From Rhizophagus irregularis (lineage: Eukaryota), in contig NC_089430.1 in assembly GCF_026210795.1 (NCBI RefSeq), positions 1,054,001 through 1,118,000 of the forward strand: 64,000 nt of DNA. The letters are read 5' to 3'. Under the pieces are notes generated by a model. The model made no database searches and was not told the origin of the DNA. It worked only from the letters and a program-made list of their open reading frames with translations. Positions within the stretch are counted from its first letter, which is position 1; each line of letters starts with the position of its first letter. Shown here in pieces: positions 15,999 through 58,151 of this stretch. Made by a program: the position numbers and the translations under genes.

Positions 15999-16044
15999 TT
16001 GTTTTCTGTTCCCCTTCCCCGTTCCTGATTATCATTGTGCTCTA

Positions 16045-19000: not shown

Positions 19001-21666
19001 AAGTCACTCACCTCTCCGAATCTGAATGTGCCTCGGCAACCAGCAGTATCCGTTCCTTGGTTAAACATAAGGCCAATTTTTCACGTGTACTCCCTGATTC
19101 TATTTTGTTTTTATCTCAAGGCTTGGGATTGATTAATTTATTTTTTCATCAATCACAAACACATTTAACTAATTTATTTTTATTAGCTAATTCTTCTTCT
19201 TCTTTTATGAAAAATTTATTATTATATAGATTACGTTTAATTCAATTTTCTTTTTTGATTCCTATTTCCCCATTGTTAGTTAAAGATTGGACTATATGGT
19301 CTAAACTTTTTGCTTTCAAACAGGATTATATCGCTTGCGCTATTGCTCTCCTGACCACCACTCCTTTCAAGTTGTCACGTTCTCAACTTTCAACTTTGCC
19401 TGCCCTTACTATACCTGATGGTCATACACCTTTATTTGAAGTTATGACTCCAAATATTTTTATATCTTATTTCCGACGCCTTAGAAGTCTGCAACTTTAT
19501 TACCTATCTCAGTTCATCACGCCTCAAGGAACCCATATGATCACTTGGAATGTTTACTTATCCAATTTATCAAGTAGGAAAGGTCATCGAGTCCTCCCGC
19601 ATAAGTGGTTCAATGACATCCGTCAAAACGTCACTATTCCAAATTCCAATTCTTTCCTTTTGGATCAATTCTCCTCTGATGCTACTCCTTCAAATGTTGA
19701 CTTGATCCCAGCCTTTGGTTCCTCTAGAAAATCCATGAAATGGATCGTGACTTTGGACGAAGATGGTTCTCCTCTTTTTGGAAAACAACTCAGCAAACAA
19801 CAATATTCTTGCAAGATTGTCTATTGGACCTCTGATTGTGTGACTCGACCTAATGATGTTATCACGCTCGCTCCTTGTCCTGGTTGTTCTAAACATGTAC
19901 CGGTTTCTCATACTAAAAACCAACCATCCGATGTTACTCCCTTATGTATCATTCCAAAACTCTCTCCACTTAGATCTTTAATTCTTCCTACAACGCAGGA
20001 GCGTATTAGATATGACACCGTCAATATTACTTCTCCCTTCACTTGGGCGGACCTTGATGAAACTGTTCGATCCTATTATGGTCGTTTGGACACTCAACCT
20101 AATTTTTCACAAGTAGATGTGGTTACTCTTCCTACTCCTTCTTTTCCTCCCTCTTTGGACTCGGCTGCCTCTTTTGCTTTTGCTGCCTCGCCGTTAGCGA
20201 CTCCTCCTGATAACCATTATTGTTTTTATACCGATGGTTCTTTAATTAACCTTGGCACTCCTGTTGTTTCTATGGGTTGGTCTTGGGTTCAAGTCCTCGA
20301 TGGCGCTGGTTTTTTCCAATCTATCGCTGCTCATGCTCATGGAATTATTCACAATTGGCCTTCCTCCACAAGAGCTGAAATCGCTGCTATACATGCTGCC
20401 CTTACAGTCACTCCACCCTCTTCAACAGTCACTATTCATACTGACTCTCAATCTGCCATAGATGGTCTTCGTCTATGTGCTACCTTTTCTTATTCCAATA
20501 GTAGGCTTTATTACAAGACCACCAATTTCGAACTCTGGGCTATTATTGAACGTCTCATTTCTTCCAAATCTTTATCCGTCATGGCTGTTAAAGTGAAAAG
20601 TCACTCTGGTAATTTCTACAATGACTACGCGGACTCTTTGGCCAACTCTGCGCATTCTTCTTCTTCAGCAATTCTTCTCTCTGATCTGGACCAAATATCT
20701 CCTCACGATTTCTTATTAACATATGATGATATTTTATGTGAATCCAACCCACGACGCCTATTTAAGCAATATTCGCAAATGCTGTGGATGTATAGATTAA
20801 CGCGTCTATCGCGTTTTAACTTTACCATTGCTTTATCTTCTACCCCAGATTTCGTGATTGATTGGGATCTTACCTGGTTCTCGTTAAATTCAGAACCTCA
20901 GCATGATGCCTTTTTTACTCGTGCTCATGCTTCCTCTCATCACACCTTCAAATTCAAACTCTTTTTGGAAGATTTACCTATCTTGGAACATCTTAAAAGA
21001 ATTCGCCCGGACTTGTATATCGACATCTTATTGTGTCGTTCATGCCTCGACTCCAAGGAAGATTTCATGCACTTGTTTATGTGCAAATGTAGACGAATCG
21101 CTATGGAACAGATTCTCCTCTCCTACCAACGTCATTTTATCAACAAACTTCAAGAAGCTGGTGATCTCGTTAAAAAAGATCCCTCTTTAATTATTAACAA
21201 ATTTAAATCTCTTCCTTGTTGGTCCTTTTCTTCTTCAAATTGGACTTCATATAGTCTTGTCTGTGGCTGCCTTCCGAAATCCTTTGTTGAATTTTTTGAA
21301 GAACTTTCTGTTCCACGTAACTCTGCAATGAAGGTTATCTCTGCCATCCATAATCACTTTATCCAAAAGATCAGAAAACGAATTTGGCTACCGCGCTCCT
21401 ATGATAAATCTAAATGGGAAGACGCGATGAATATTACTCATAAACTCAAACTCTCTCGGCCTTCAAATTTGCCGAAGCCTACGTACTTACCTTTCTCAAC
21501 TTTACCTCCTCCGACCCTTTCCAATGACGCACGTGACTCCGACGTTGATTATTTAAAGAACTCGATGAAATATGGTTTGCCTTGGTTTAATCACTATTCG
21601 GGTTTTATAAGTCGTCTAACGGTGCAACTTACTAACAGCTTTAGCAGGGTGGTGTGTCGATTTTAA
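16045..21666 (+). CDS. LINE ORF2 polyprotein: AP endonuclease, reverse transcriptase, RNase H, C-terminal Cys/His motif
   Basis: APE: SFNVNGL, GDFN, RIDYVW, SDHNP. RT: RPITLL, DISKAFDSV, QGEVISPLL, FMDD, FLGVW. RNase H: YTDGS, RAEI, TDSQ, KSHSGN..ND.AD. C-terminal CRSC...HLFMC. First ATG at 16045. Confidence 0.95.
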   Translation: MSDNFNYDTFVRNPPNPVDTYIFSEHESLFTTSNSSPIPNSFNISSFNVNGLRHNSQVKIEQISNFFNLKHISFGGIVDTHLSPKQIHFLSKRLPNYTVFSSDIDKTKQVNSTGGVSLFIEKSLASHVQDFVSHSSRILSVDLYFKGNIKLRIFVIYIPPISDSKLRSETIDLLLQLLVQAKQQNFYHAICGDFNMHLDTYYPIYFNRPATASQRAYRLLHHLLSHGYEETFPVNASNSLGTFHRDDQVTRIDYVWSCPMLKSYALTSYIFDAQDTCSSDHNPIITYFDDSLLVASIKVARAKQLQRQTRRVFKLDSVTTQQWESFSTHTDSLCDVSPSIFSTWHINQQCEYLHSRIVKAANTSLPSVTVGNQHVPTMPKDLEALTQHYRFLSRLLHSIRLLRKYPSTYYNRYERTWSIHFIRLQKILYLYKKVIPSPPILPTSLSTCRQDEFKFLLESLKTISCALHGFLLLKEKDFQDSSIRAKLDDRDTHFETDISSFINSALSRTRRRITLDRVFIDHPTQPKLLTDPHDIDDAVINHFQNSVPIKSTPPDNISALPERWSSAYRPMDDVDSSIYNSLLDPPTLEEWLSTVSSMPNDKAPGPSMITYEMLKHLGSNTSALVLILVQSCLYTADIPDLWRQAMVFPIPKPHEWKCQLMNTRPITLLEVIRKSLVKLFYNRLASILASKEVLKGGNFAGLPGGSCRDPIVVLESIIHDAHVNKSPLWILSQDISKAFDSVDLKMLRFALERIKLPASATKFILSLFMKRSNRVFTAHGTTPSYRVCIGIDQGEVISPLLWVIYIDPLLTILKNEMMDPYILHAPSLSNPLAEISSDELRINNLVFMDDSTLISSSKLGMELMLSITEEFYQINNTSANHNKYVLITNSLPPTSVSSPSPVVFDLQLSELNKVPSISIVPIAMNSSFRFLGVWFNVAGSRDFVKKQVARECNSFAATVRPAKLSAKQVVYLHNTVLIPKLEYRMQVTHLSESECASATSSIRSLVKHKANFSRVLPDSILFLSQGLGLINLFFHQSQTHLTNLFLLANSSSSFMKNLLLYRLRLIQFSFLIPISPLLVKDWTIWSKLFAFKQDYIACAIALLTTTPFKLSRSQLSTLPALTIPDGHTPLFEVMTPNIFISYFRRLRSLQLYYLSQFITPQGTHMITWNVYLSNLSSRKGHRVLPHKWFNDIRQNVTIPNSNSFLLDQFSSDATPSNVDLIPAFGSSRKSMKWIVTLDEDGSPLFGKQLSKQQYSCKIVYWTSDCVTRPNDVITLAPCPGCSKHVPVSHTKNQPSDVTPLCIIPKLSPLRSLILPTTQERIRYDTVNITSPFTWADLDETVRSYYGRLDTQPNFSQVDVVTLPTPSFPPSLDSAASFAFAASPLATPPDNHYCFYTDGSLINLGTPVVSMGWSWVQVLDGAGFFQSIAAHAHGIIHNWPSSTRAEIAAIHAALTVTPPSSTVTIHTDSQSAIDGLRLCATFSYSNSRLYYKTTNFELWAIIERLISSKSLSVMAVKVKSHSGNFYNDYADSLANSAHSSSSAILLSDLDQISPHDFLLTYDDILCESNPRRLFKQYSQMLWMYRLTRLSRFNFTIALSSTPDFVIDWDLTWFSLNSEPQHDAFFTRAHASSHHTFKFKLFLEDLPILEHLKRIRPDLYIDILLCRSCLDSKEDFMHLFMCKCRRIAMEQILLSYQRHFINKLQEAGDLVKKDPSLIINKFKSLPCWSFSSSNWTSYSLVCGCLPKSFVEFFEELSVPRNSAMKVISAIHNHFIQKIRKRIWLPRSYDKSKWEDAMNITHKLKLSRPSNLPKPTYLPFSTLPPPTLSNDARDSDVDYLKNSMKYGLPWFNHYSGFISRLTVQLTNSFSRVVCRF

Positions 21667-22121
21667 TAATGGGCGCATTGTTCGTTGGTTTGTTTGCATA
21701 GTTGCTTCTTCTTAGGTTGGAATATATCTAGGCGGGGGATCAGGATAGTTTTAGTGTTATGCGATTTTTTCCTTTTTGAATTAATTTTATAGCTTTATTA
21801 CTGTTTTGGAGACTATATAGTTTTGTTTTTAGTTAATTTTATTTTTCTTTTTTGTACTTTGAAAATTTTATTTTATTTTTGTAAGTTCGTTAAATAAATT
21901 TAATAAAGATAAAGGCTACTATGCCATATTTGCCTCGACAAGGATTGATGACCATATAACCTTATCATCAGGTATCCTTGCATTTTTTAATAAGGACTGA
22001 TGACCATGTAATCTTATCATCAGGTATTCTTGTATTTTTTGATAAGGACTGATGACCATGTCACTTGGTTATTGTAAATTGAAGAAAACTATTAGGTATG
22101 TAGACACATACAGAAAAAGAC

Positions 22122-22699
22122 ATGTCTTACCCTTATATAGCTAACCCTATAACTGGACGTCCAATTATTATTGGTGGAGATACCTTTAATCGAATAGTTA
22201 TGGAATCCCATGATTATATTGATGGAAGGCTTGTCCGTAGACAAACTGCACTTCCACCTGAGGAGCAACCTGTATATTTAAATACAGATCAGGACATTAT
22301 GTTCGACGTGGTACTAGAATATATCATAGACTGATTGAGAGTGACTATGAGGTAGTTGAGGACTACTACCTTATCCATTATGAAGAAGAAGAGCTTATAG
22401 AGGAAATCATCAATGAAACACGCTATAATGAGGAAAATCTTGATGGCAAGCGGTTAACTTTCAATGATATACAACAAATCAGAACTGCTATTCAGGCTGA
22501 CCAAGATGAATATGATGATTTTATCTCACAGCAGGATATGACTGATATGACAACTATCGGTCCTTCCGGTCGTCCACAAACTTTGGAGGACCATGCCCCG
22601 AGACTTGCAGAGCTTAATATTGAGTTGTGTAGGGAATGTCTCATGCCTGTAAGCCCAAGTGACTTAACGGACAAGTTGTGCAAGGACTGCTCCGAATAG
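22122..22699 (+). pseudogene. Small protein with two NPxTGR-type repeats and a C-terminal C4 zinc finger (copy A, frameshifted)
   Basis: NPITGRPIIIGGDTFNRI and (from copy B) NTDTGRYVRRGTRTYHRL; ends LCRECLMPVSPSDLTDKLCKDCSE. Confidence 0.6.
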
Positions 22700-22744
22700 T
22701 TACTTAATTTTGAATAATTCTTTTTTACATAAAGAAAGATAGCC

Positions 22745-23304
22745 ATGTCAACATCAATCGTAATAAACCAGTGTCAAAACTGTGGAGTAATCACTCCAAA
22801 AACAGCACATAGAGGATTATCCAGTGTATTATACAGACAGATTATAAAGAAGATTAGTGATGAAAATGACCCTCTACAAGCCTTGGGACTTGCTAGGGAT
22901 AAGTTAGTTCAGATCATTCGTCGGGAAGTAATGTGGACTTTACACAATTGTTTACACAAAGACTGGATATAAAAATTATGGATGGAGAGCCATATGAAGA
23001 TATTAGGAAGTGGCTTCTCGAACAGCTTATAGCCATAGGTTGTGACAGTGGAGAAATTGCTTTATATCAATTTCTAAGGGATACATATTTAGATAGTATT
23101 GACGAGCCTTTCACTACATTCTATGAGAACTATGTAAATCATATAAGTAATCCAATGACTAAGAACTTTGCTTCTCGTGCTTTAGGAGCAATAGGGTTGA
23201 AGGCTAAGATGTTAAGGATTAACTTTGAAGGCCGTAAAAAAAGTGCTATGATTCTTAGAACTTCTGCAGACGAATTACTTGATATTCTCACAAGATACTA
23301 TTAA
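22745..23304 (+). pseudogene. 186-aa protein homologue (copy A, one frameshift)
   Basis: Matches intact 32391-32951 of copy B. Confidence 0.7.
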
Positions 23305-24080
23305 TCCCTACTTGTAATGCTCGACGGTCCATGTGGCTCTTAGAAAAGATCTGTAGAAGGACTTCAATACCTTCTATTATTTTTTTATTATCCAGAGGGC
23401 GACTAGACTTCAGGGCTTCATATTGGAAGAATAACTCCTTCACATTCTCAGTTTTCAGAGTTTCAGTCTTTGCAGTCCTACCCTGTACTTTAGCTAAGAA
23501 GTCCTGAAAGTCAGCTCCTAGGGTCTTACTAGAGAGTCCATAAGCTTCCCGAAAGACATATTTAATCCAGATATCTGTATTCTTGGCTAAGACACCAGGT
23601 ACAAGTAAATGTTTACGTTCTTTAGGGGATGGAAATACCCGAGCAAATTCAATCAAGTGTCCACCTTTTTTTGCTTCAGATACAGCTTTCTGACCATAGG
23701 GACTAAACTTGGATCGAACTGTGATTGAACTGGGTTCAGACTGAGATCGAACTGGGTTCAAACTTGGATCAAACTGAGATTGAACTGAGATCGAACTAGG
23801 ATTGAACTGAGATTGCTCTGAGATCGAACTGAGACTAGTATCCCATCTTACTCGAATGGACAGTGGATCACTTTTGGACCGTCTAAGATCAAACACTACA
23901 AATTCACGTTGCAGAGTAAGATTATCAATTACTGGTGCTAATGACTCTGATTCTTCTGTATATAGGCGGATGATTCTCTTGGTATCTGTAAGGCTCCCAT
24001 GACCTCCATGCAGTGAGATGTAGTTAACATTTTCTCGAATAGCCTTAAGAATGGCAAAGAATCTTTGGGCTACATAAATA
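23288..24080 (-). pseudogene. Packaging ATPase copy A, 3' part (continues at 41287-41312 and 57706-58120)
   Basis: Reverse complement of the copy B ATPase; joins seamlessly across the pogo TA and the hAT GTCGTCCA duplications. Confidence 0.88.
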
Positions 24081-24467
24081 CCGTATAGCGCTGCATATAG
24101 TACCTGGGGTACTATTCAAAAACGCCAGCCTAAATTAAATAGTACCCGGGGGGGTATTATGTGAGGAGGAGGGTACTATAAAAAGGGGGTACATTGTAAA
24201 GGGGGTACTAATCATGTGATAATATTATTAACAGTTAAGTAATCAAAAGAACTCTAACAATTTTCAACCGCAAAATTTAAAATAAAATAAAAAACTTCAG
24301 ATGTAAAATGTAAAAATTTTGTAAATTCGGAAATTATTGTAATGATGATCGTAATTCAGATCAGAATAAATCATGAAATTCAATCGTGTTTTTCGCGTTT
24401 TTATTCTGCAACTTTTATTTCATATAAAATGGGTCCCCGCGCAAACAAAAGAATTAACCGCTAAACA

Positions 24468-26066
24468 ATGACAGAAAAAAAGCGAAGACAATGGAACGCG
24501 CGTGAAAAAATTGCAATTATTATGTATCATGAGAACGGCCATAGTAAAAGAAAGACAGCAGACAAGTTCAACATTCAAGCAAAGCAACTTTGTGACTGGA
24601 TATCTAAAAAACTACAGTTATTAAAGGTACAGCCGGGTGTAAAACGTTTAAATATAGGAGTAAAACCAAAATATCCAGCTTTAGAAACTGCTCTAGTTAC
24701 CTGGGTTAAAGAAAAAAGAAAAAATCAAAATGCTGTCACACGAAGTATGATTCAAATAAAAGCCCAGACCCTTGCACAACAACGTCAATGGCAAGTTATG
24801 TGTTCTGGTATCAGGTCTTTTAGGTTTAGTAATAAGTGGTTAAATGGTTTCATGAGCTGAAATAAATTGAGTAATCGTCATCGCACTACAATTGCACAAC
24901 GTTTACCTGAAGATTTAATCGAAAAACAGCAATCATTTTTGGCATTCGTCACGTACCGCCGCATACAACATGATTATCCCTTAGCATATATAGGAAACAT
25001 GGATGAAACGCCAGTATCATTTGATCTGCCCACCAATACAACTGTTGATGAACTGGGTGCACGATCAGTTAGCATCCGCACTACAGGTCATGAAAGAACA
25101 AATTTTACAGTTGTATTAACCTGTATGGCAGATGGAACAAAACTTCCCCCACTCATAATTTTCAAACTCAAAAATATTCCACGAGGAAATTTTCCCCCAG
25201 GAGTTATTATTCGAACAAACCAAAAAGGATGGATGAATGAGAATGAGATGCTCTTTTGGATTGAAAATGTATGGGTTAAACGCGAAAGGCTTTCCAATCC
25301 ACAATCATTATTAGTTTTAGATTCATTTTCTGCTCACATCGTGGATTCTGTTAAAAGGCGTTTCATCGAAAAAAAAACTGATATTGCAGTTATTCCTGGA
25401 GGGTTGACATCTCGCCTACAACCTTTGGATGTTTCAGTGAATAAATCATTTAAATCAAAGGTAATAATTATTAATTTTCTCTCCATTTTCTAGGGCGACT
25501 CTATTTTTTTTAAAAAACATTTTATTTTTATTTTCACCTTATAGATGCGAAGAAGATACAATGAGTGGATGGCAGAAACTATAAAAGATTTAACACCAAC
25601 TGGCATCATCAAAAGACCCACTTATGAAACTGTAGCACATTGGGTCAAAGATTCGTGGGAAGCTGTTGATGTTAATTTGATTCGGCGATCCTTTAAATGC
25701 TGTGGCATTTCTAACAATCGTGATGGAACTGAAGATGGCTGGATTTTTAATTATGATCGTCTTGAACAACAAGCAAGCAAACCTAATGATGAAGTAGCAC
25801 CACAATCAGATAAAGAGGACGAAAATACAAGTGATGAGGGATACGAAACTGATACAAGTGAAGAGGAACATGGAACCGACGGAAGTGATGAAGAATTTGG
25901 AAATAATGAAAGTGATGAGGAATCTGAAAATGATGAAAGTGATGAGGAACATGGAAATGAAGAGGATAAATCTGATGAGAGTGAATATGAGGAGGTGGAG
26001 GATGATGGCTATTCGGGTTATTATGATGAACAAGGAACAAATTACGTTAATGTATGGGATGAGTAA
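24468..26066 (+). pseudogene. pogo-like transposase (HTH/CENP-B DNA-binding domains, DDE_1 domain, acidic tail); one stop at 24858; intron 25461-25544
   Basis: NMDETP, LLVLDSFSAH, LQPLDVSVNKSFK; GT...AG intron restores the frame into MRRRYNEW. Confidence 0.9.
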
Positions 26067-26222
26067 AATGGGTGGCTTTGATTGTGTAACCATTGCTAAT
26101 TGATGGTTTGTTAATAAAATTTCATTTTACGGCAATTGTTTTTTTATTACAATTAATTATATGAAAGTGTACATATACTGTATACATTGAACTATACAGT
26201 ATATTTATAAATCAAGGTTAAA

Positions 26223-26686
26223 GTCGTCGGGCTGGATGTGGGAGGTGCAAGCACCACCCACCTCCGGGTCTACGACCCGTCGCAGTACCTATATCGCCCC
26301 TACGGGGCTCAGAAATCCCCATATATCCGCCACAATCTGGGACAACATATGGAACAAATATATATACCAAATAACTAGAAAACAATAGAAAAGGAAGGAA
26401 TAATGGATATAATGAGAGGGTTGTCCCGGATGTGGCAGATGTGGCAGATGTTTCAGAAAAAATATGAGAGGACATTCCCCCAGAAAAAGTTTTATTTTTA
26501 CCCCCTCAGATCCGCCACATCCGGAACATCTGGAACAAGTCAGGATTCTGTCTAATAATCTGTTGGAAGCAGTGAGACAGCAAACCAGGTAAATTAGTAG
26601 GTAAGCCCCTAGAAGGTCTATAAAGCCAGTAAGACCAACCCCGTCCCGCTCCCATCAGAAAAAATAAGTAATTGAACAATGGGTAT
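26223..26686. repeat. Terminal inverted repeat of copy B (integrase side)
   Basis: GTCGTCGGGCTGGATGTGGGAGG...AACAATGGGTAT is the reverse complement of 40489-40951 with few mismatches. Confidence 0.95.
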
Positions 26687-26725
26687 TGAGAATAGAGCAT
26701 ATCCAGATAAGTTTAGAAGACAGTA

Positions 26726-27045
26726 CTAATCCGTCTTCCTCTTTTTTGCCTCCTTAAGGCATTTATCAATACACTGTTTACACGCGTCATCAGAATCTAA
26801 GATTTTCTGTCCAAGTTTTTTGCATTGCCGATTGTAAGCCGTCTGCTGTCTCTTAGCAGCGGTTTCTTTTTTTTCTCCTTAGTCTTCTTCTTGATCACCC
26901 AGTCTATTCCAGTAAAAGTATTCTTATGCATACCACAAATTGTGCAGTCACCATGCAGCCGGTAACGCCCATTTGTAGTCATATCTTGTATTTCACTAGC
27001 CGTCTCAGTTTCCTTCTTGCACTTTAGGCAGTAAAAACGTGTCAT
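26726..27045 (-). pseudogene. Zinc-ribbon protein (DUF5679-like), frameshifted in copy B
   Basis: FYCLKCKK...NGR..L.G.C.ICG..K..F; intact homologue at 62260-62580. Confidence 0.65.
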
Positions 27046-27089
27046 TTTAAGATTTGAAGTCTAAAACCATTCCTTTAATTTGTCGTAAT

Positions 27090-28181
27090 ATGTCGCATTT
27101 AGAGAATTATTACAAATACTACAATCTCTCCGGAGTACCAGCACGAATTCTAAAAGGTGAGGAGCACTACAACCTATACAAAAAGCCCCTAAAGGAGAAG
27201 TCAACAGAACGCCCAAAGGTAATTGTATGGAAACCAAATGCAACACATCAGGCAGATCTTGCAGAGATGCCAGTTGACCCCAAAGGATTCCACTATTTTC
27301 TCGTAGTGGTAGAAGTTGCAGGAAAGAGAGTTGATGCAGAACCCCTAAAGGATAAGACTGCAAATAGAGTTCTAAACGGGTTTGTCAAAATCTACAGAAG
27401 AAATCGTATCAAGCCTCCAACACACCGACTAAAGACAGACTCCGGATCAGAATTCACTAACGACCAGGTACGTGATTTTTTCCTGAACAGCCTAGGGGTA
27501 ATGATGAGGTTCGGAGAGCCAGGAAGGCATAAACAGCAATCTTATGCTGAAAGAGCTATCCAAGCCATCCAAGAAACCCTTCTTAAACGAATGGTAGCAC
27601 AGGAGTTGAAAACTGGGGTGACATCCGTAGAATGGTCAGAAGATTTCCATAATATAGTGAATAAAGTAAATGAACTCTGGCAGAGAAATCCCCCAGACAT
27701 TCCGACAGAGTCACCCAAAGTGTCAAAAAAGACGGATCTCCTCTCTGAAGGAGCACGTGTCAGAGTCAAGTTAGATGAACCTATTTCTGTACTTGATAAC
27801 AAACTTCACGGAAAATTCCATACAGGAGACATAAGATGGAACCCAAACATTCGTGTAATCAAAAAAATGATACTCTCACCTGAACAGCCTCCTACATATC
27901 TTCTTAACGGACCACATGGTCGATTAGGTGTATCCAGATGTGCATATACCCGAAAGGAATTGCAAGTAGTTCCTATTAATGAAAAGCCTCCACCTGACTC
28001 TGTGATAAGAGGACAACCTGAAAGATTTGTTCTTGAGCAGATACTTCGGCATCGCATTAGAAAAGGTCAAGACCAGTATTTGGTTAAGTGGGAGCGCTAT
28101 CCAGACACTGAGGCTACTTGGGAACCTGCTGACCAGTTGAAGGAGGATGTCCCTGACTTAATTCGCAAATTTTGGGAATAA
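27090..28181 (+). CDS. Retroviral-like (rve, DDE) integrase with C-terminal chromodomain, intact
   Basis: HQADL, TDSGSEF, YAERAI (D,D,E triad); chromodomain EQILRHR....QYLVKWERYPDTEATWEP. First ATG at 27090. Confidence 0.92.
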   Translation: MSHLENYYKYYNLSGVPARILKGEEHYNLYKKPLKEKSTERPKVIVWKPNATHQADLAEMPVDPKGFHYFLVVVEVAGKRVDAEPLKDKTANRVLNGFVKIYRRNRIKPPTHRLKTDSGSEFTNDQVRDFFLNSLGVMMRFGEPGRHKQQSYAERAIQAIQETLLKRMVAQELKTGVTSVEWSEDFHNIVNKVNELWQRNPPDIPTESPKVSKKTDLLSEGARVRVKLDEPISVLDNKLHGKFHTGDIRWNPNIRVIKKMILSPEQPPTYLLNGPHGRLGVSRCAYTRKELQVVPINEKPPPDSVIRGQPERFVLEQILRHRIRKGQDQYLVKWERYPDTEATWEPADQLKEDVPDLIRKFWE

Positions 28182-28205
28182 AAAAAATAGAAAAATTAAA
28201 GGGTC

Positions 28206-28945
28206 TTATTTTTTATCCCCTCGATTAGCATCAGGAACTATCAGGATAAAAACATTCTTCCCATCACAGGTAAAGGCTATATGTTCACGTGATTCATGGA
28301 CATCATAATTGTAACGTTTCAGACACGTTCGGCTTAACCCAATTTCCCTATGCTTGTAACCACTTAAGACTGCAAGGTCCTCAGTGATAGCATAATCAGG
28401 GGTAAGTTTGATTGTCACTCCCTTTACCATGCCAAATGTCCTACCTGTTCCTGAAGTACCAGATATGTTGTATGTAATACTCTTGTCGATATCCAACCCT
28501 AATTCCTCAGCAGCTTCTCTCTGAATAAAAGACGCATTAGCACAAGTGTCTGCTAAACACTGAATTGCTATCCCATTAACCTCCCCATCCAGTGCTAAAA
28601 GATCTTTAGTATTCTCTAAACGAGCTATGTCAATATCCATAGGATCGTCTACCCTGATATCTTCTTCTTGTTCCTCCTCAACTAGGTCCTCCGGAATCTC
28701 TGTGACTTTTCTAGCAGACAATAACTCCTCCTGAAGAATCTCACGGAGTAATTTCCTAAAGTCTGCAGACCTTAACAGGCTTAATAAGTCATTCTTAGTA
28801 ACAGCTTTTGCAGGTGTAGACTTACTACCAGTAACTTTCACAGGAATCTTAACAGGGGTTGCTTTGCCTTTCAATGGCACACTAGAAGAGCTAACTGCTG
28901 TCTTATTTGGGGACGACTTAAGAAGTTTTGAGATACTTGAACCTA
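28206..28945 (-). CDS. Retropepsin-type aspartic protease, in the -1 frame relative to the Gag-like ORF
   Basis: GEVNG..IQCLADTCANASFI..EAAEELGL, flap ISGTSG, IGLSRTCL. Frame is open back to the A-run before the Gag stop. Confidence 0.82.
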
Positions 28946-30373
28946 CTTTTTTTTTGACCCAACACGAACCATATAGACATCACCATCTTTTTCTTTCAAT
29001 TCTACCTTTTCACCAAAACTCGCAGTATCAATGTCCATAGCATCATCATTAAGATCGAGGTTTCTCATTGCTCGGGCCAAATCCAGATCATCACGTCTAT
29101 CTTTAGCCTTCTGAAGTTGTTTTGTAAGTATTTTAGACGTCCCACGTTTATATCCCATAATAAGATCAATAGCATTTTGATGATCATCCAAAGTCCACTC
29201 AGGAGCATCAGGGTCATCACCAACATCATGATCTACATAACCATCATCCCAATCAGGATCCTGAGGATCCTGAACAACACGTCTCTGTGGTTTTGGTCGA
29301 ACAGGTTTAATCTGCTGTCTATAGACTGGTGGATTACGAACTGGCCGAGCCTGTAATTGTTTAAATTGCACCTGAAAATTCTTGGTAAGTTCCTCAGCTT
29401 GAGCCTTAAGTAACTCTTGTAATTGTTCTTGAGTAACCCCAGATGACTTTGATGTCAGTACGACAGGTTCCTGTTTTCCTAACAGAGGTTGAGTTACATC
29501 ACTGTAATCTGCTTGAAGTCGTCGATTTCTATCTTGTAACCCCAAGCGCATTTCAGCCCTTCTCCGTTCTAAATTTCTCAGATGTTTAACCAAGTCATCA
29601 GGATTAAGATTACTAAACCTTTCTGCTTCAAAAATATTATCAGCCGAAAGACCTCTAAAGAACTGGTCGATAATAAGATCATCAGTTAGTTTTAGTAATT
29701 TTCCAGCTCTCTTTACAGTTCTATAAAATGCATCGACTGGCTCATTTTCCTGATAAAGACTGTTAAAACGGATACGTTTCTTTTCATCTAAAATAGTTGG
29801 AAATTGTGTTCTAAGCCAATAAAGCGCCTGGTTAGGTTTAATACCTGAAAAAACTATAAGATGATTATTAGCAGCAGCAACACCAGCATCTGCAGTAGCT
29901 GGAGCAACTCTATCTGTCGGACGAGCACCAGCTCTTTCCCAAGCTTTATTTCCACCTATTAAATCATGAGTAGGAATAAATGTTGCTCTAATAGTTGCTA
30001 ATGCATTATTTATATCTCTTGAATAGATTTGTGCTTCAGACCCATTTACATAGGTACCTGCATTTGGTCCTCCTGCACCTTCTGGTATTACTAATGCTAC
30101 AAAAGCAGCTAAATTAGCTCCACCTCTTGAAGTGATACCAGAAAGTTCCCAATTTTTTCCTGTAATTTCTCGATCAAACCATTCAGTTGCTTCACCAGTC
30201 ATGCAGCTTCTAAGTATACCCATAGCTCTTTTCCAAGACTCTGGTGGCCCTCCAGCAGCATATGGGTTAAGATTAATAGTATCAAGATAACCCATATAAA
30301 GCCTAACAAATGTATCAATATCATCAATAGCTTTACCCTCAAAAATCGGCAATTCTATCGCAGTGGTAGCCAT
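28943..30373 (-). CDS. Retrotransposon Gag (capsid)-like protein, 476 aa, intact
   Basis: LPIFEG..DDIDTF, LRSCMTGEATEWF, and an MHR-like LYQ.NEPVDAFY...K.......D..IIDQFFRGL. No zinc knuckle seen. Confidence 0.78.
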   Translation of the reverse strand: MATTAIELPIFEGKAIDDIDTFVRLYMGYLDTINLNPYAAGGPPESWKRAMGILRSCMTGEATEWFDREITGKNWELSGITSRGGANLAAFVALVIPEGAGGPNAGTYVNGSEAQIYSRDINNALATIRATFIPTHDLIGGNKAWERAGARPTDRVAPATADAGVAAANNHLIVFSGIKPNQALYWLRTQFPTILDEKKRIRFNSLYQENEPVDAFYRTVKRAGKLLKLTDDLIIDQFFRGLSADNIFEAERFSNLNPDDLVKHLRNLERRRAEMRLGLQDRNRRLQADYSDVTQPLLGKQEPVVLTSKSSGVTQEQLQELLKAQAEELTKNFQVQFKQLQARPVRNPPVYRQQIKPVRPKPQRRVVQDPQDPDWDDGYVDHDVGDDPDAPEWTLDDHQNAIDLIMGYKRGTSKILTKQLQKAKDRRDDLDLARAMRNLDLNDDAMDIDTASFGEKVELKEKDGDVYMVRVGSKKK

Positions 30374-31152
30374 ATCGTCTCTAGTGGATTGTTTAAAAGA
30401 GGTGGAGGAGGGTTCAATTGTCTAATTCGAAACCATTGTACCTGAATTCTAAGAGCAGCTATCTGTTGGAAAAGTCTATTTCTAAGTCTCCCTAATGTCT
30501 GAATCCCAAAACGCACCCTATTATTAGCATGTGCTAGCTGTACATTAACCTGTCCAAGTTGCACATTAACCAATACAAGTTGTCCTCCAGTTCGAGTAGC
30601 CCTCAGCCGCCAATGATTTAAAAGGATATTACCACGATTCACAGCATTTTGAGCCTCATTACGATCCCTTACTGCTTGAGTATAATCTGCTTGTAATACA
30701 TTACGTTCATGTCATGCCTGATTACGTTCACCTATAGCCTGTCGACGAAGCTCTACCATAGTATCATAATCTCTTTGCAGGTTATGGTTTTCTTCTATGA
30801 AATTATCATTGGCAGCACGTATAATAACTAATTGACATTCTAAATTAGTAAACGTTTCATCAAATGCATTTATCTTACCTTGTGCAAAAACTAACAAATC
30901 TTTTGTAATACCAAGTTCTTCATGTTTTGCTTTACAGCGATACATTAATATATTAATAATATGTTTGATTTGATTATTTGCCTCCTGTATCTCTGAATCA
31001 ACAGTTAAACGACCCCTGGTAGTCAATAAATTTGCATGAGCCTTTAGTATTCTAACTAATTCATCATCGTCTTTTTCATTGACCAAGTGTGCAGGAGGCG
31101 GTCCAGTAGGTTCTGAAGGAGTATAAACTGGAATTGGTGTTGATGTCGACAT
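30355..31152 (-). pseudogene. Coiled-coil protein upstream of Gag (265 aa; one CGA>TGA stop at 30712)
   Basis: Intact homologue at 58152-58949; heptad-rich; ends PPPPLLNNPLETIWLPLR overlapping the Gag start. Confidence 0.75.
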
Positions 31153-31183
31153 AGTATTTAAACTAAGTTAGAATAAAATTCAA

Positions 31184-32407
31184 ATGGATCTTTATATATA
31201 CAATTTGGACGAGTATACGACCGACTCAAGACAAGGCAATGAGTTTGCTCCATCATGGCCCTTTCGATTAGCTGTAGCAGGTAGCTCAGACTCAGGTAAG
31301 ACAACTATGATCATTAATTTGTTAATGGGTGACAAGAAAGCAAAAGAGGATGGTAATCGGTATGTACTATGTGATGCAGTACTTTTAGTTGGCAGATATC
31401 TTGACGAGCTGAAGTGGGCAGTTGTACATGATTTTTTCGAAGAGGAAAAGATCCCATTCACTGCAGTAACCCATAGTGAGATTTCAGAGATTGACTCCTT
31501 CGACCCTACTCAAGCTACTGTGGTAATCTTCGAGGATCTGATGGATGCACCTAAAAAAATCCAGGATCTCATCACTGGTTACTTTACACATGGACGACAC
31601 AAAAATATTTCATGTATTTATGTAGCCCAAAGATTCTTTGCCATTCCTAAGGCTATTCGATAAAATGTTAACTACATCTCACTGCATGGAGGTCATGGGA
31701 GCCTTACAAATACCAAGAGAATCATCCGCCTATATACAGAAGAATCAGAGTCATTAGCACCAGTAATTGATGATCTTACTCTGCAACGTGAATTTGTAGT
31801 GTTTGATCTTAGACGGTCCAAAAGTAATCCACTGTCCATTCGAGTAAGATGGGATACTAGTCTCAGTTCTATCACAGAGCAATCTCAGTTCAATCCTAGT
31901 TCGATCTCAGTTCAATCTCAGTTTGATCCAAGCTTGAACCCAGTTCGATCTCAGTCTGAACCCAGTTCAATCACAGTTCGATCCAAGTTTAGTCCCTATA
32001 GTCAGAAAGCTGTATTTGAAGCAAAAAAAGGTGGACACTTGATTGAATTTGCTCGGGTATTTCCATCCCCTAAAGAACGTCAACATTTACTTGTACCTGG
32101 TGTCTTAGCCAAGAATGCAGATACCTGGATTAAATATGTCTTTCGGGAAGCTTATGGACTCTCTGGTAAGACCCTAGGAGCTGACTTTCAGGATTTCTTA
32201 GCAAAAGTACAGGGTAGGACTGCAAAGACTGAAACTCTGAAAACTGAGAATGTGAAGGAGTTATTCTCCCGATATGAAGCCCTGAAGTCTAGTCGCCCTC
32301 TGGATAATAAACAAATAATAGAAGGTATTGAAGTCCTTCTACAGATCTTTTCTAAGAGCCACATGGACCGTCGAGCATTACAAGTAGGGATTAATAGTAT
32401 CTTGTGA
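31184..32407 (+). pseudogene. A32/FtsK-HerA-type DNA-packaging ATPase (407 codons; one stop at 31661 that is GAA in copy A)
   Basis: PFRLAVAGSSDSGKTT (Walker A), VVIFEDL (Walker B), FTHGRHKNISCIYVAQ (Arg finger and sensor Gln), IPKAIR.N. Confidence 0.88.
31864..31995. repeat. 11-bp tandem repeat, 12 units, inside the ATPase ORF
   Basis: Consensus CAGTTCGATCY; also present in copy A at ~23700-23831. Confidence 0.85.
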
Positions 32408-32951
32408 GAATATCAAGTAATTCGTCTGCAGAAGCTTTAAGAATCATAGCACTTTTTTTACGGCCTTCAAAGTCAATCCTTAACATCTTAGCCTTCAACC
32501 CTATTGCTCCTAAAGCACGAGAAGCAAAGTTCTTAGTCATTGGATTACTTATATGATTTACATAGTTCTCATAGAATGTAGTGAAAGGCTCGTCAATACC
32601 ATCTGGATATGTATCCCTTAGAAATTGATATAAAGCAATTTCTCCACTGTCATAACCTATGGCTATAAGCTGTTCGAGAAGCCACTTCCTAATATCTTCA
32701 TATGGCTCTCCATCCATAATATTCATATCCAGTTTTTGTGTAAACAATTGTGTAAAGTCCACATTACTTCCCCGACGAATGATCTGAACTAACTTATCCC
32801 TAGCAAGTCCCAAGGCTTGTAAAGGTTCACTCTCGTCGCCAATCTTCTTTATAATCTGTCTATACAACACGCTGGATAATCCTCTATATGCTGTTTTTGG
32901 AGTGATTACTCCACAGTTTTGGCATTGGTTTATTACGATTGATGTTGACAT
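32391..32951 (-). CDS. Hypothetical 186-aa protein (N-terminal CxxC; C-terminus resembles a winged-helix domain)
   Basis: Intact ORF. LYQFLRDTY...FTTFYENYV......TK.FASRAL..IGLK parallels LFQFIKD.Y...FY.VY..Y......SK..ASRIL..LGIN of the element's own helicase. Confidence 0.65.
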   Translation of the reverse strand: MSTSIVINQCQNCGVITPKTAYRGLSSVLYRQIIKKIGDESEPLQALGLARDKLVQIIRRGSNVDFTQLFTQKLDMNIMDGEPYEDIRKWLLEQLIAIGYDSGEIALYQFLRDTYPDGIDEPFTTFYENYVNHISNPMTKNFASRALGAIGLKAKMLRIDFEGRKKSAMILKASADELLDILTRYY

Positions 32952-32996
32952 GGCTATCTTTCTTTATGTAAAAAAGAATTATTCAAAATTAAGTAA

Positions 32997-33577
32997 CTAT
33001 TCAGAGCAGTCCTTGCACAACTTGTCCGTTAAGTCACTTGGGCTTACAGGCATGAGACATTCCCTACACAACTCAATATTTAGCTCTGCAAGTCTCGGGT
33101 ATGGTCCTCCAAAGTTCGTGGACGACCGGAAGGACCGGAGGAAGGTGTCCCGTTAGTCATATCTTGCTGTAAGATAAAATCATCATATTCATCTTGGTCA
33201 GCCTGAATAGCGGCCCTGATTTGTTGTATATCATTGAAAGTTAACCGCTGCCCATCAAGATTTTCCTCATTATAGCGTGTTTCATTGATGATTTCCTCTA
33301 TAAGCGCCTCTTCTTCATAATGGACAAGGTAGTAATCCTCAACTACCTCATAGTCACTCTCAATCAGTCTATGATATGTTCTAGTACCACGTCGAACATA
33401 ACGTCCTGTATCTGTATTTAAATATACAGGTTGCTCTTCAGGTGGAGGTGCAGTTTGTCTACGGACAAGCCTTCCATCAATATAATCATGGGATTCCATA
33501 ACTATTCAATTAAAGGTATCTCCACCGATAATAATTGGACGTCCAGTTATAGGGTTAGCTATATAAGGGTAAGACAT
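32997..33577 (-). pseudogene. NPxTGR-repeat / zinc-finger small protein (copy B, disrupted)
   Basis: Homologue of 22122-22699, with a different stop and frameshift. Confidence 0.6.
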
Positions 33578-33700
33578 GTCTTTTTTCTGTACGTGTCTAC
33601 ATACCTAATAGTTTTCTTCAATTTACAATAACCAAGTGACACGGTCATCAGTCCTTATTAAAAAATGCAAGGATACCTGATGATAAGGTTACATGGTCAT

Positions 33701-33979
33701 CACTGGTAAAAAAATGATTTATCCTACACATATCTTACACATATTGGGTACTCAAAATGTAGAAAATCATACACAAATAATACACATATCATACACATAT
33801 CGGGTACTAATATATATATCATACATATATCAGGTACCTGATAGGTATACTATATATATAAGTACCCGATATGTGTATGATATGTGTATTATTTGTGTAT
33901 GATTTTCTACATTTTGAGTACCCGATATATATAAGATATGTGTAGGATATGTGTAGAATAGACCATTTTTTTACCAGTG
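33701..33979. mobile_element. CACTA-type foldback MITE inserted in the 53-bp array of copy B
   Basis: TIR CACTGGTAAAAAAATG / CATTTTTTTACCAGTG; 3-bp TSD CAT; near-palindromic throughout. Confidence 0.88.
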
Positions 33980-34300
33980 CATCAATCCTTGTCGAAAAAA
34001 TGCAAGGATACCTGATGATAAGGTTACATGGTCATCAGTCCTTGTCAAGAAATATGAGGATACCCGATAAATAAGTTACTGGGTTATTGGCCTAGAATGC
34101 ATTCATGGAAAAACTATGGATTATATTACAGAAAATGTGAACGGAGTTCATGTCACGTGATACCCTGAACAAATGTGTAGAGTGTCACGTGATTTCATGC
34201 GGTACGTAGATCATTTCATTTTTGGGCGATACCCGTTCCACAAAAAATCGATTTGGTAAGAATGCGTTTGGAACCCTGTGTAACATAAATTTCCTTTTTC

Positions 34301-34715
34301 GGGGGTCGTCTAAAGCGGAGTCAAATCACGTGATTTGATATAATATGAGTGAACTAATTTTTTTATGAATCAAGTTTAACATAAACTTGAAAATCATAAA
34401 ATAAGTGTATTTTAGCCTGCTCTACGAGTTTACTTAAGGTTGAAAGGTAGATTTTGAATACTGGTTTTCACTTTATATATTAGCAAAAGCTTTTTTGCCG
34501 ATCATATCCAAAAATGGATAGACAAAAATGAAAAGTCAAATAAATCGAAAACGGCATTCAAAACTCATTTTGTCATTCTAAGTAAACTTGCAGAGCAGGC
34601 CAAAATACACTTAGTATATATGTTTAAAAGGTCATATATATATTGCGAAAAATTTTATTTAGAAAATAAATTTTTTTCAAAGTCACGTGATTTGACTCCG
34701 CTTTAGACGTCCCCC
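34301..34715. mobile_element. MITE with ~33-bp TIRs
   Basis: GGGGGTCGTCTAAAGCGGAGTCAAATCACGTGA / TCACGTGATTTGACTCCGCTTTAGACGTCCCCC. Flanked by duplicated TTTTTC (TSD 6-10 bp depending on boundary choice). Confidence 0.85.
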
Positions 34716-34791
34716 TTTTTCGGTAATTCGGGATTACGCGGTAATGCTGGCCGGATCTAAAAAATATAAACTAATTTCGTACAGGAGCCGC

Positions 34792-35262
34792 TTATGCAAG
34801 AAGTTCTGCTAAGGTTTTCTCAGCCTCATTCATAGTGACAGCTCGCTTTGGGGGACCTGTTAATGAGTCCTTAGTTACATTATAATACAACTCGAAGAGG
34901 GCCTCAAGTTTGTCTAAAAGAGCTTGTTTATTCTTGTATGATTCATGAATCTTTGCTATCTTAGCAGTATATGCTGCATTATCTGGGAAGAGTTTTCTGG
35001 CCACGAACTTCACATATGATACAGGAGACTTTGCTGTCTGGATTCTCTTGATATACTTCACATGATCCTGGACAAGGTAGCTGGTTTTGCTAAACCCAGA
35101 TACTAATGCGACTACTATAGTGTCTTTCAATGCACGGATAATCTTGAGGACAGTTTCATCAGAAACAATGGTGAACTGATTGTGTGATGCATTATAAATA
35201 ACTTTATCACTAATGCTGTCAGTGCTGTTAATAATGCTTGCTAATTCGGTATATGTTGACAT
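34792..35262 (-). CDS. Hypothetical 156-aa protein (copy B)
   Basis: Intact; homologue of 12627-13097. Confidence 0.7.
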   Translation of the reverse strand: MSTYTELASIINSTDSISDKVIYNASHNQFTIVSDETVLKIIRALKDTIVVALVSGFSKTSYLVQDHVKYIKRIQTAKSPVSYVKFVARKLFPDNAAYTAKIAKIHESYKNKQALLDKLEALFELYYNVTKDSLTGPPKRAVTMNEAEKTLAELLA

Positions 35263-35375
35263 GATTCCTTATACTTTTTTGTACTTTGTAATAAATAGGA
35301 ATCTTCAAATTGACTTTACATTCAAGCAAGAAAAAATATATATACCTACTGTAAATTCAACCGCATTCTTGGCAA

Positions 35376-37256
35376 TCATGTCCAGATAACCTTGTTTGCA
35401 TTTTTCACATGGCAGTATCCTGCGGTTTCAAACTTGAGAGCTTTCAATGCTTTGGATGCATTTTCTGGACAAGTGATAAGTGTAGGACTACTCGGCTGTT
35501 CCTCTAGAATAAATCCATCTGTATGGATGCGTCGTACTTTATCCTTATATGGTTCTAATAACTCTGAAGTCGTCTTCCGTCCATGTGCTAATAAGAATGG
35601 AGTGATCCTAGGATACTCACCCTTGAAGGGACTACCTGGGTTTGTAAACTGGAATCGCCACTGGTCAGATCCTACTGGTACGATGGAGTCAAGTGTGTGG
35701 CCTTCTGGAAACTTGAATGGATCTGTTTGATCTGTGGTGAGTGTCTTGTAATTGCGTTTCCTCTGGCAGAGTGCTCCCCATAGTGTATTGAGAACTCTTT
35801 TTGCAACACGACCGGCCACGCCACCCTGGTTCTTTATATTGAAGAGAAAGTGGACATACTCACCAAATATTACAGTCCCAGGAATTCTTGCTTCTCTGTC
35901 ATATATCAAGGCATTTGGCTTTACATCCTGGATTAACTGTATATCGAGTTCAAGTTTCTTTGCTCGTTGTAAGTCAATGAATGTATAGACTCCCCTCTTA
36001 TTCTGTCGGAAGAGAATGTCATTACCACTTACCTTGCCCTTGGGCGCTCCCTGGGAGCTAGCACGAAATAATCCATACAAGGCATAACCTCTATGGTCTA
36101 CAAAGTCTTTGAGTATTTGAAACTTACCTTGTCAGATTGGAAAGTTTGCATTTGATTGCTGAATACTTGGATACAAACTTGTCACGTCGTATTGCCTTCC
36201 ATAGCCCTTCCATTCATTGTCTGCCCAGATAAGACCTCCCATCATTGCATCACTTATCCACTCTGCTTCAACTGGGTCAAGAGGATCATTGGCTGGAACC
36301 CCTACACTAAACCGTTCAAAAAGCCAGAGTGCAGTTCTCTTGTACGACCAGTTGTGGTAAGATAAGTCGATTCCTAGACCGAACTTCTTTGTAGCCTGTA
36401 GGAAGGAATCCCGCTCTTCATGGATCCTCTGGTATGTTTCCTCAAGTGTTTCATATATTCCAGTTTTACAATTCTTCTCGATAGGGATGAAGGAGTAACT
36501 ATCAGAGTTCTTACCTTTCTGAAACTGTCCAACTGTAAGAGACTTAACTGTCTTACCATTGTATATTGTTACTACATTATTAACCCCATCTTCACGATAA
36601 ACAAAGGGAGACTTTCGTTTTCTATCTAATTTGCTAGGGTGGAGTCTTCCGGGATTCAGTGCAAGAGAGTAGTGGCCTTCAGACAGGATAAGTATTGCAC
36701 GTCTGTCAGATTTGCTCTTGGAAATTTGAGTGGAATCCCCTACAATATTAAGTGCAAGGCTTCCTGCAAGTTGTTCAACCTTATCCATATATGAGACTGG
36801 AACTGGAGCATCACGATTGAGACCTAATGCCTTTTTGATATACTCGGGCTTTTCGATTGACTTTGGCATTTTAGAGAATGTGCCGTAGATATATTTCAGG
36901 CATTCATACAGGCAATCATTTAGCTCCCCGTTGCAACCCCCTGCAACCGGTGGGGCATCTCTCACATAAATTATGAATCGTTCAAAATAATCAGGGTCTG
37001 CGTCATCCGGTAGTTGTGCTTCGTCGTAGTGGTCCAAGAGTGAGAAAAGGCTGGCTGGTTGGTTTCCTGATGTCCATCCACCAGGTTTCCAGTTTTCATA
37101 GGGGAGCAGAATCTGAAATTTATGTGTCGGATACCAGGATTGGAGTCGCTGTCCAAGTCTTGCTATTGCTCCTCTGGAAAATCTTGCGCCTGAATACTGT
37201 AATTCTTTGATATCCGGTCTTGTAGGTAAAGCACGGACAATCTCTGAATAAACCAT
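35376..37256 (-). pseudogene. Protein-primed-type family B DNA polymerase with OTU-like N-terminal region (~626 codons; one CGA>TGA stop at 36132)
   Basis: AMMGG, YDVTSLYPS (motif A), AKRVLNTLWG (motif B), RIHTDGFIL (variant motif C). N-terminal NDCLYECL...ILILSEGHYSL. Confidence 0.88.
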
Positions 37257-37339
37257 TTGATGTATTTATAAATTGTGTTCAGTTGTAATATAGGTTTTTT
37301 ATACAAAAAATATAAGATAACTAAGAAGTGCTTATCTTA

Positions 37340-39882: not shown

Positions 39883-40174
39883 TTTTTGTTCTATCAAATC
39901 GAGTACTAATTTATAGTTACCTAATCTTCAATTGCCGAATATTTTTCCAAAGATCTGCACTCCTACCAATTTACCCTCCTGTAGTCCTATGGTCCTGCGA
40001 TTCTGCGGTCCTCCGGTTATATCTGGTTATCTTCTAGGGGTAAAAAAAAACTATAAACCACGAACCTTTACGACTGCTCTAAATCTTCCCTTCCCCTTTT
40101 TCAAACTACATATATCTGAAATCCAAACCGCTCAAGAGCTCCTTTTACTATAGTTAGCTTTTTTCTAGTGTCCG

Positions 40175-40459
40175 TTAACTCTTTACAAGCCTTTTGATAC
40201 GCCTTCCATTCAAGTTCACAGAGGATACCCTCCTCCTCCAATGATTGGCCAAGAGCATCATTTGCTTTTTCCTTCTTTTCACTGCCCTGTCGTATGCCTC
40301 CTCGGCTTTTTTATGCCGCTTCCAGAGTACTCGTTCAGCTTCAGCTCTCCAGATTGGGCTGACTTCTAAAAGATGTGGCCCAAAATTGCTACTTGGAATG
40401 TGTTCCAGGATATGGCTTACAAGTTCGGGGATTACTAATACTGCGTGCGGGGTATACAT
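40175..40459 (-). CDS. F-box-like small protein next to the TIR (possibly frameshifted at its 3' end)
   Basis: VLVIPELVSHILEHIP......LLEVSPIWRAEA fits an F-box-like pattern. Confidence 0.55.
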   Translation of the reverse strand: MYTPHAVLVIPELVSHILEHIPSSNFGPHLLEVSPIWRAEAERVLWKRHKKAEEAYDRAVKRRKKQMMLLANHWRRRVSSVNLNGRRIKRLVKS

Positions 40460-40488
40460 GTTATCTGTCCTTATAGGTTACTTATGGT

Positions 40489-40951
40489 ATACCCATTGTT
40501 CAATTACTTATTTTTTCTGACGGGGGCGGGACGGGGTTGGTCTTACTGGCTTTATAGACCTTCTAGGGGCTTACCTACTAATTTACCTGGTTTGCTGTCT
40601 CACTACTTCCAACAGATTATTAGACGGAATCCTGACTTGTTCCAGATGTTCCGGATGTGGCGGATCTGGGGGGTAAAAATAAAACTTTTTCTGGGGAGAT
40701 GTCCTCTCATATTTTTTCTGAAACATCTGCCACATCTGCCACATCCGGGACAACCCTCTCATTATATCCGTTATTCCTTCCTTTTCTATTGTTTTCTAGT
40801 TATTTGGTATATATATTTGTTCCATATGTTGTCCCAGATTGTGGCGGATATATGGGGATTCCTGAGCCCCGTAGGGGCGATATAGGTATTGCGACGGGTC
40901 GTAGACCTGGAGGTGGGTGGTGCTTGCACCTCCCACATCCAGCCCGACGAC
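40489..40951. repeat. Terminal inverted repeat of copy B (helicase side)
   Basis: Inverted copy of 26223-26686; ends CCAGCCCGACGAC. Confidence 0.95.
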
Positions 40952-58120: not shown

Positions 58121-58151
58121 TTGAATTTTATTCTAACTTAGTTTAAATACT

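Follow-up and report, generated by a model that had tools for sequence, protein, structure and literature searches.

In the retroviruses mouse mammary tumor virus (MMTV) and human T-lymphotropic virus (HTLV), gag and pro are connected by a −1 frameshift, and RF1 and RF2 of PEG10 are connected by a corresponding shift. Frame junctions are bridged by transcriptional slippage at nine A/T in dnaX of Thermus thermophilus (PMC5009743) and by slippage that adds one A in pipo of potyviruses (PMC4552492). The Polinton/Maverick of Glomus intraradices (Rhizophagus irregularis) is described as having no detectable major capsid protein (PMC7805220; 10.64898/2026.06.19.733378), and Mavericks are reported to have expanded recently in R. 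irregularis and the Glomerales (PMC8647823, PMC11952901). Here we analyzed a 64,000-nt stretch of R. irregularis DNA (assembly GCF_026210795.1, contig NC_089430.1, positions 1,054,001 to 1,118,000; hereafter the window, whose own numbering is used throughout), which carries a Polinton-like DNA element with a Gag open reading frame (ORF) and an aspartyl protease ORF. The feature at the junction of these two ORFs is real and conserved; it would work like retroviral gag-pro recoding but shows no predicted 3' stimulator of that class.

As in MMTV, HTLV, and PEG10, an ORF with a predicted capsid fold is followed by a −1-frame aspartyl protease ORF, a slippery run immediately precedes the Gag stop, and the predicted outcome is a minority fusion product. 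Unlike these systems, the junction has no predicted 3' stem-loop or pseudoknot, what is conserved is nine or more consecutive A's, the protease is not followed by a reverse transcriptase (a convergent integrase takes that position in 15 of 28 loci), and the carrier is a DNA element. It shares with dnaX and pipo a homopolymer at the frame junction, the entry into the −1 frame by one added A, the absence of such runs elsewhere in the coding sequence, and no need for a stimulator; in contrast to the bacterial and viral polymerases of those systems, the enzyme here would be fungal nuclear RNA polymerase II, which we propose from the DNA alone.

Both copies of the junction in the window had a Gag ORF ending in nine A's and G-TAG, followed by the aspartyl protease ORF in the −1 frame, exactly where a preliminary description of this DNA had placed them. 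In copy 1, on the minus strand, the A9 run occupied positions 28947–28955 and held two in-phase heptamers, A_AAA_AAA (28949–28955) and A_AAA_AAG (28946–28952, which takes in the following G), and the Gag stop was the TAG at 28943–28945. The −1 frame of this copy opened 24 nt 5' of the run, where its entry point is bounded by a stop codon (28980–28982, minus strand), and stayed open for 246 codons 3' of the run, with its first Met at codon 103. In copy 2, on the plus strand, the run was at 60349–60357, the heptamer A_AAA_AAG at 60352–60358, and TAG at 60359–60361. The −1 relation claimed in the preliminary description thus held for both copies, but the protease frame of copy 2 was interrupted by a stop at 60571–60573. 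Copy 2 is a broken pseudogene: this stop lies in its −1 frame linker-protease pseudogene (60358–61098, plus strand), and its Gag pseudogene (58931–60361, plus strand) contains internal stops at 59738–59740 and 60230–60232. Because the two copies were 95% identical over the 5 kb compared and AAAAAAG occurred 56 times (19 + 37) in the window, the window alone is uninformative about selection and the agreement of its copies is weak evidence.

A metagenome scan with the protease alignment yielded 28 loci, of which three were excluded from the junction counts: L026 and L027, which stop short of the junction, and L028, a fragment of 43 residues whose upstream DNA is unrelated. The other 25 loci and the two window copies provided 27 junctions from 14 lineages (grouped at approximately 80% protease identity), with pairwise identities of the protease core down to 47%. 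In 24 of them, tblastn gave the Gag frame; the longest open frame was taken for L016 and L022, and the frame of the sibling L022 for L021. No relative turned up in IMG/VR when it was scanned with the Gag and protease alignments. The run was nine A's long in 22 junctions, ten in three, eleven in one, and eight in one. At least nine A's were therefore present in 26 of the 27 junctions, whereas the remainder of these Gag and protease ORFs, 34,932 coding nt in total, contained no such run, and it is this comparison that argues against chance. The comparison of A-run length across many copies that the preliminary description had proposed is given by these counts, and none of the 27 DNA junctions had Gag and protease fused in frame, an arrangement it had named as evidence against frameshifting; among 120 database gene models, one reads through. 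The conserved element is the run of at least nine A's, not the heptamer A_AAA_AAG.

Lys-Lys pairs outside the junction were encoded by AAA-AAA in only 32 of 92 cases. In 25 of the 27 junctions, the −1 frame continued for at least 20 codons past the run without a stop, and the +1 frame did so in one; at all 27, the −1 frame was closed 15–60 nt 5' of the run, with no Met in that stretch. Linker substitutions were most frequent at third positions when read in the −1 frame (147/129/239 by codon position; 13 overlapping, non-independent pairs), and 27 of 52 linker gaps were multiples of three, 21 of the 52 coming from one poorly aligned pair. The exceptions were as follows: L008 had A8 and a +1 instead of a −1 relation, whereas its 93% identical sibling L013 had A9 and a later indel; L015 had a stop 12 codons in; and L024 had a stop just 5' of the run. 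At the protein level, 25 Gag ends were found among 29 hand-picked matches reaching or approaching the end of the profile, some of these sequences being the loci themselves. In all 25, the final seven residues included Lys-Lys, and the ending was KKK or KKR in 18. One homolog was from Entrophospora candida.

The A-run began in each of the three codon phases. In the three lineages whose last codon was AGR after two AAA codons, the preceding codon was always CAA, compared with an A at that place in none of nine AAG lineages (Fisher p of 0.005, or 0.018 if two share one event; the lineages are related and the p values rough). AGR drops one A at the 3' side and CAA adds one at the 5' side, so that the run length stays at nine. 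This pattern is suggestive of run-length compensation and no stronger than that, as paired indels or selection for a basic C-terminus could also yield it.

The preliminary description had taken A_AAA_AAG as the signal. This heptamer was in phase at 17 of the 27 junctions and missing from 10, and we rejected it as a conserved signal. A_AAA_AAA was in phase at all 27, as any A9 automatically contains it, and the stop followed exactly one codon later at 24, lying 4–6 codons away in L015 and L020. A slip of a single tRNA next to the stop was rejected as a general mechanism, since the last codon was Arg at seven junctions and the stop was distant at two. According to the review by Atkins et al. (PMC5009743), A_AAA_AAG is a shift site of the E. 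coli type and A_AAA_AAC is among the mammalian ones; efficient −1 ribosomal frameshifting in eukaryotes is described as normally requiring a downstream structure (PMC4552492). The 70 nt after the run folded no better than shuffled sequences (z < −2 at 0 of 27 junctions; mean z, +0.39), and the downstream regions of the window copies folded worse than the shuffles (z from +1.1 to +1.8). The pseudoknot prediction suggested in the preliminary description, made here by a crude scan, gave p ≤ 0.05 at three of the 27 junctions (L010, L017, and L018) and was negative for both window copies, and Rfam had no match over 28000–31500. A conserved downstream hairpin was rejected on the folding z-scores, the shuffles, and the pseudoknot scan, and programmed ribosomal frameshifting of the retroviral type, as the preliminary description had it, was not supported, since the folding z-scores gave no 3' stimulator at any junction (long-range pairing and protein stimulators lay outside this test). 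The retroviral signal is half present: there is a heptamer and a −1 ORF without a start of its own, and there is no predicted 3' structure.

That a Gag-protease fusion is made by a slip of some kind at the run is likely on this sequence pattern. The low-level fusion put forward in the preliminary description is still the best reading of the junctions, with a −1 frame open from the conserved run at 25 of 27 and no in-frame fusion. As to the kind of slip, we favor the insertion of one A by host RNA polymerase II at the A9 run, with a rough probability of 0.45. Adding a single A leads precisely into the −1 frame, as can be read directly from the sequence. Most expression would terminate at the Gag stop and yield Gag; in some transcripts, polymerase II would add one A at the run and thereby open the −1 frame, and the minority product would be Gag-linker-protease. 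Through this fusion, Gag particles would receive a small number of protease molecules, which would mature them.

The minimum run length of nine, the indifference to codon phase, the lack of a predicted stimulator, and the direction of the addition favor polymerase II slippage. Among the 26 junctions with the −1 layout, none had seven or eight A's, although the heptamer needs only seven. In COS-7 cells, approximately 10% of transcripts from an A8 tract are reported to receive an extra A from polymerase II, a dog A10 tract is reported to gain or lose an A in approximately 10% each, and yeast polymerase II to favor additions (PMC3520932, citing other work for all three). Yeast shows more insertions than deletions, and its frameshifts become more frequent as the tract lengthens (PMC5650487). 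A site of transcriptional slippage is expected to have a run of roughly the length of the RNA-DNA hybrid, nine or more; the in vivo threshold for slippage in bacteria is given as nine A/T (PMC5009743), and in an E. coli system ribosome sliding on A9 or A10 gave little product (PMC4363877). Slippage in the transcript would also be safe for an element that replicates as DNA, since, unlike in a retroelement, its RNA would not be copied back into genomes.

Several points weigh against polymerase II slippage. Frequent slipping by yeast polymerase II is reported only above a tract length of 11 (PMC3520932), so the rate at A9 in the fungus may be low. The extra A's could stem from selection for a Lys-Lys-Lys/Arg C-terminus, and paired indels could shift the phase while keeping the run whole, with no selection on how long it is. 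The in-phase A_AAA_AAA at every junction, the stop one codon later at 24 of them, and the crude pseudoknot signal at three all count in the same direction and speak for a slip by the ribosome instead, moving back one base on A_AAA_AAA with two lysine tRNAs and no folded stimulator, perhaps helped when the ribosome pauses at the stop, one codon further on. This would give the same products and is the idea of the preliminary description with the site moved one codon upstream. Shifts of −1 that produce Gag-protease and Gag-Pol are the norm in relatives of this capsid, which also counts for the ribosome. The geometry of heptamer and stop is reported to matter for ribosomal shifting in an umbravirus, and pea enation mosaic virus to need a stop 3 nt after its shift site (PMC5009743). 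However, folding z-scores revealed no stimulator at any of the 27 junctions, A7 or A8 would suffice for a heptamer and is not found with the −1 layout, the heptamer comes automatically with any A9, the stop is displaced in L015 and L020, and A_AAA_AAG is lacking at 10 junctions. We regard stimulator-free ribosomal slippage as a serious contender that is somewhat less probable than polymerase II slippage, and the two may act together.

Explanations without a transcriptional or ribosomal slip fared worse. An optional intron could remove the Gag stop and join Gag to the protease, leaving unspliced RNA to encode Gag only, and gene models that join the two and skip residues at the junction indeed make up approximately 85 of the 120 Gag homologs listed, with a GT within one base after the run at 23 of the 27 junctions. 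However, that GT is largely forced by the G and the stop codon and is absent at four junctions, no shared donor-like site was found, and the models join at different points in different subfamilies. An intron would also have no need of the 20 stop-free codons of the −1 frame, present at 25 junctions as against one for the +1 frame, and would leave the A-run unexplained. Splicing is therefore improbable, and these bridging Rhizophagus gene models are probably annotation artefacts. Production of the protease alone, from the Met of a D-x-M-D-I-D motif by way of a separate transcript or internal initiation, we judge very improbable: this residue (Met103) was invariant in 56 of 56 aligned homologs, but approximately 85–120 codons 5' of it remain open in the −1 frame, substitutions in this stretch prefer third codon positions (13 non-independent pairs), no Met lies between the upstream stop and the run at any of the 27 junctions, and again the A-run has no role. 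A similar M-D-x-D/S motif near the Gag end is not a start. Just as improbable is a switch at the DNA level, in which replication slippage would create rare A10 fusion copies that supply protease in trans within a many-nucleated fungus. The gene model P0026 (CAB4432354.1), which is continuous from Gag into the linker, and the A8 variant L008 would fit such a switch; however, no DNA junction was fused, and P0026 is 1 of 120, forms a single-member cluster, and is possibly an assembly error. The open, conserved protease frame in A9 copies of 14 lineages points to use in cis.

The proteins themselves agreed with the calls of Gag and protease made in the preliminary description. The best protein matches of the window genes were R. 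irregularis gene models at 95–99% identity. The intact Gag ORF of copy 1 (28943–30373, minus strand) encodes 476 amino acids ending in Lys-Lys-Lys-stop, with predicted N- and C-terminal capsid domains over approximately residues 3–285. Its match to PF03732 (Retrotrans_gag) in Pfam was weak (E = 0.041 for the window protein), and the homolog P0310 was above the cut-off. Residues 1–291, modeled from a 67-sequence alignment, reached a mean predicted local distance difference test score (pLDDT) of 85.9, compared with 49.9 from an earlier, shallower alignment. When this model was compared with 48,161 representative PDB chains by VIA-align, the top 34 rows were all capsids of the retroviral or retrotransposon type, with Z from 9.6 (root-mean-square deviation 7.7, 178 aligned) to 5.4; each Z alone is middling, and it is the uniformity of the list that supports a retro-type, two-domain helical capsid as the predicted fold. 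Foldseek gave the PEG10 capsid domain as its top match (best E = 2.3e-03), with no match at E ≤ 0.001 and the Ty3 capsid absent among the rows listed. No CCHC zinc knuckle was found in the window Gag protein; PF00098 was matched weakly in the distant homologs P0294 and P0373.

The −1 ORF of copy 1 (28206–28946, minus strand) would encode a basic linker of approximately 100 codons with one conserved helix, followed by an aspartyl protease domain (PF13650, E = 7.7e-08, above the cut-off). Met103 lies at 28640 and the predicted catalytic Asp at 28548–28550 (minus strand), in a D-T-C motif; this Asp was at least 90% conserved in the 56 aligned homologs. Comparison of the protease with the PDB gave weak matches to Ddi1 only. 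Across the same homologs, the motif was D-T/S-C or D-T-N, not D-T/S-G. In more distant Gag families (P0291, P0294, P0295, P0299, P0309, P0310, and P0340; E from about 1e-20 to 1e-38), some members showed a zinc-knuckle-like motif, and several had Lys-Lys at or near the end; judging from these ends, they may have a recoding site of their own.

The carrier of this cassette is a Polinton-like DNA transposon, not a long terminal repeat (LTR) retrotransposon; that it is a DNA element, as first described, was borne out by an rve integrase, an A32-like ATPase, and long terminal inverted repeats. The left repeat (26222–26686, plus strand), which starts AGTCGTCG, and the right repeat (40489–40952, minus strand) are approximately 465 bp long, begin with AG, and delimit an element of 14.7 kb (26222–40952). 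Target-site duplications of Polintons are 6 bp long. None was seen here, the flanks at the element ends being non-matching, and the ends may belong to a rearranged copy. No LTR-retrotransposon layout (reverse transcriptase after the protease, LTRs) was found, the terminal repeats being inverted and not direct. Directly after the protease came either the convergent integrase or a small ORF rich in cysteine; of the 28 loci, the cassette lay beside the integrase in the 15 mentioned above and beside the ATPase in two. In L005, L013, and L024, the small cysteine-rich ORF was directly 3' of the protease with no integrase between, and the integrase module is absent or relocated in some lineages.

Within the element, the rve integrase with its chromodomain (27051–28181, plus strand; PF00665, E = 2.9e-09) is convergent with the protease. 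Upstream of Gag and overlapping its start is a coiled-coil-like ORF (30355–31152, minus strand), interrupted by a stop at 30712–30714 in copy 1 and whole in copy 2, which had no family match in the Pfam, PHROGs, or Atlas searches; the leads of the Atlas searches with two accessory ORFs were all below 0.9. The A32-like packaging ATPase gene (31172–32407, plus strand; PF04665, E = 6.9e-09) has a stop at 31661–31663 and is a single continuous ORF in the relative L018. A gene like that of protein-primed DNA polymerase B (35376–37265, minus strand; PF03175, E = 0.0017, below the cut-off, and E = 0.015 in a second search) has a stop at 36132–36134, and a D5-like helicase gene (37610–39927, minus strand; PF19263, E = 8.1e-17) is in two frames. 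The stops in the polymerase, the ATPase, and the coiled-coil-like ORF indicate that copy 1 is also non-autonomous. Neither a double jelly-roll capsid nor an adenain-type cysteine protease was matched in Pfam or PHROGs; the leftover ORFs between the repeats, which were not folded, were all shorter than 200 amino acids and, by length, too small for a jelly-roll capsid.

By description, the element resembles the Glomus intraradices Polinton in its weakly matched polymerase B, rve-chromo integrase, A32 ATPase, long inverted repeats, and host group. It differs from other Polintons in that a predicted Gag capsid and an aspartyl protease would take the place of the double jelly-roll capsid and the cysteine protease. 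An element with polymerase B and retroviral Gag- and retropepsin-like genes, which this one also resembles, appears in the legend to Fig. 5 of Starrett et al. 2021, marked Matrix/Capsid/NC/Pro with its host unnamed (PMC8502044), so a Gag-bearing Polinton element has probably been noted already. The text of that article describes no frameshift for the element, its sole mention of a frameshift concerning a human relic, and one supplement makes no mention of Rhizophagus, Gag, or retropepsin (PMC8502044). Our literature search found no account of the junction or a frameshift at it; subscription papers, Repbase notes, the figure of Starrett et al., and bioRxiv supplements may hold one.

We suggest that a retro-type Gag fills the place of the capsid missing from the Glomus/Rhizophagus Polintons, and a protease gene under probable recoding control points to a working particle and not to a captured fragment. 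We tentatively extend this, with some doubt, to the view that the Polintons of Glomeromycota exchanged the jelly-roll capsid and cysteine protease for Gag and an aspartyl protease, and the ribosomal frameshift for polymerase II slippage at A9; the signal may have changed in kind relative to a retroelement ancestor. If this is true, a conserved, productive slippage of nuclear polymerase II would set the dose of protease in a DNA-packaging Gag particle, and a transcriptional slip would be a rare case of selected polymerase II slippage in a eukaryotic nucleus. The candidate recoding site is compact, spans 14 lineages, and has no predicted stimulator.

The start of Gag was overlapped by the upstream ORF in an identical manner at six of six loci (both window copies, L007, L008, L018, and L020). 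The overlap covers 30355–30397 (minus strand) and 58907–58949 (plus strand) in the window, and the Gag ATG straddles a Trp codon, with the upstream stop four codons later. An in-phase U_UUA_AAC was present 23 nt 5' of the Gag ATG in the window copies only; as it occurred at two of the six loci, it was rejected as a second, family-wide slippery site before Gag. In the distant gene models P0294 and P0299, the upstream region and Gag are fused as one protein.

Two long palindromes, at 33701–33979 and 34301–34715, lie in the element between its polymerase and Gag sides (230 bp near-perfect and 415 bp, respectively); they may be miniature elements that inserted there, or an origin. The window holds additional partial copies of the element at 1309–5725, 21998–24081, and 57706–63491, with 92–96% identity. 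The window also contains a LINE-like element (13830–21666, plus strand), in which an RRM-containing ORF1 is split by a stop and an open ORF of 1930 amino acids encodes an endonuclease and a reverse transcriptase, and remnants of Pogo/Tc5-like and hAT transposases at 24465–25493 (plus strand), 41894–43977 (plus strand), and 10012–11900 (minus strand).

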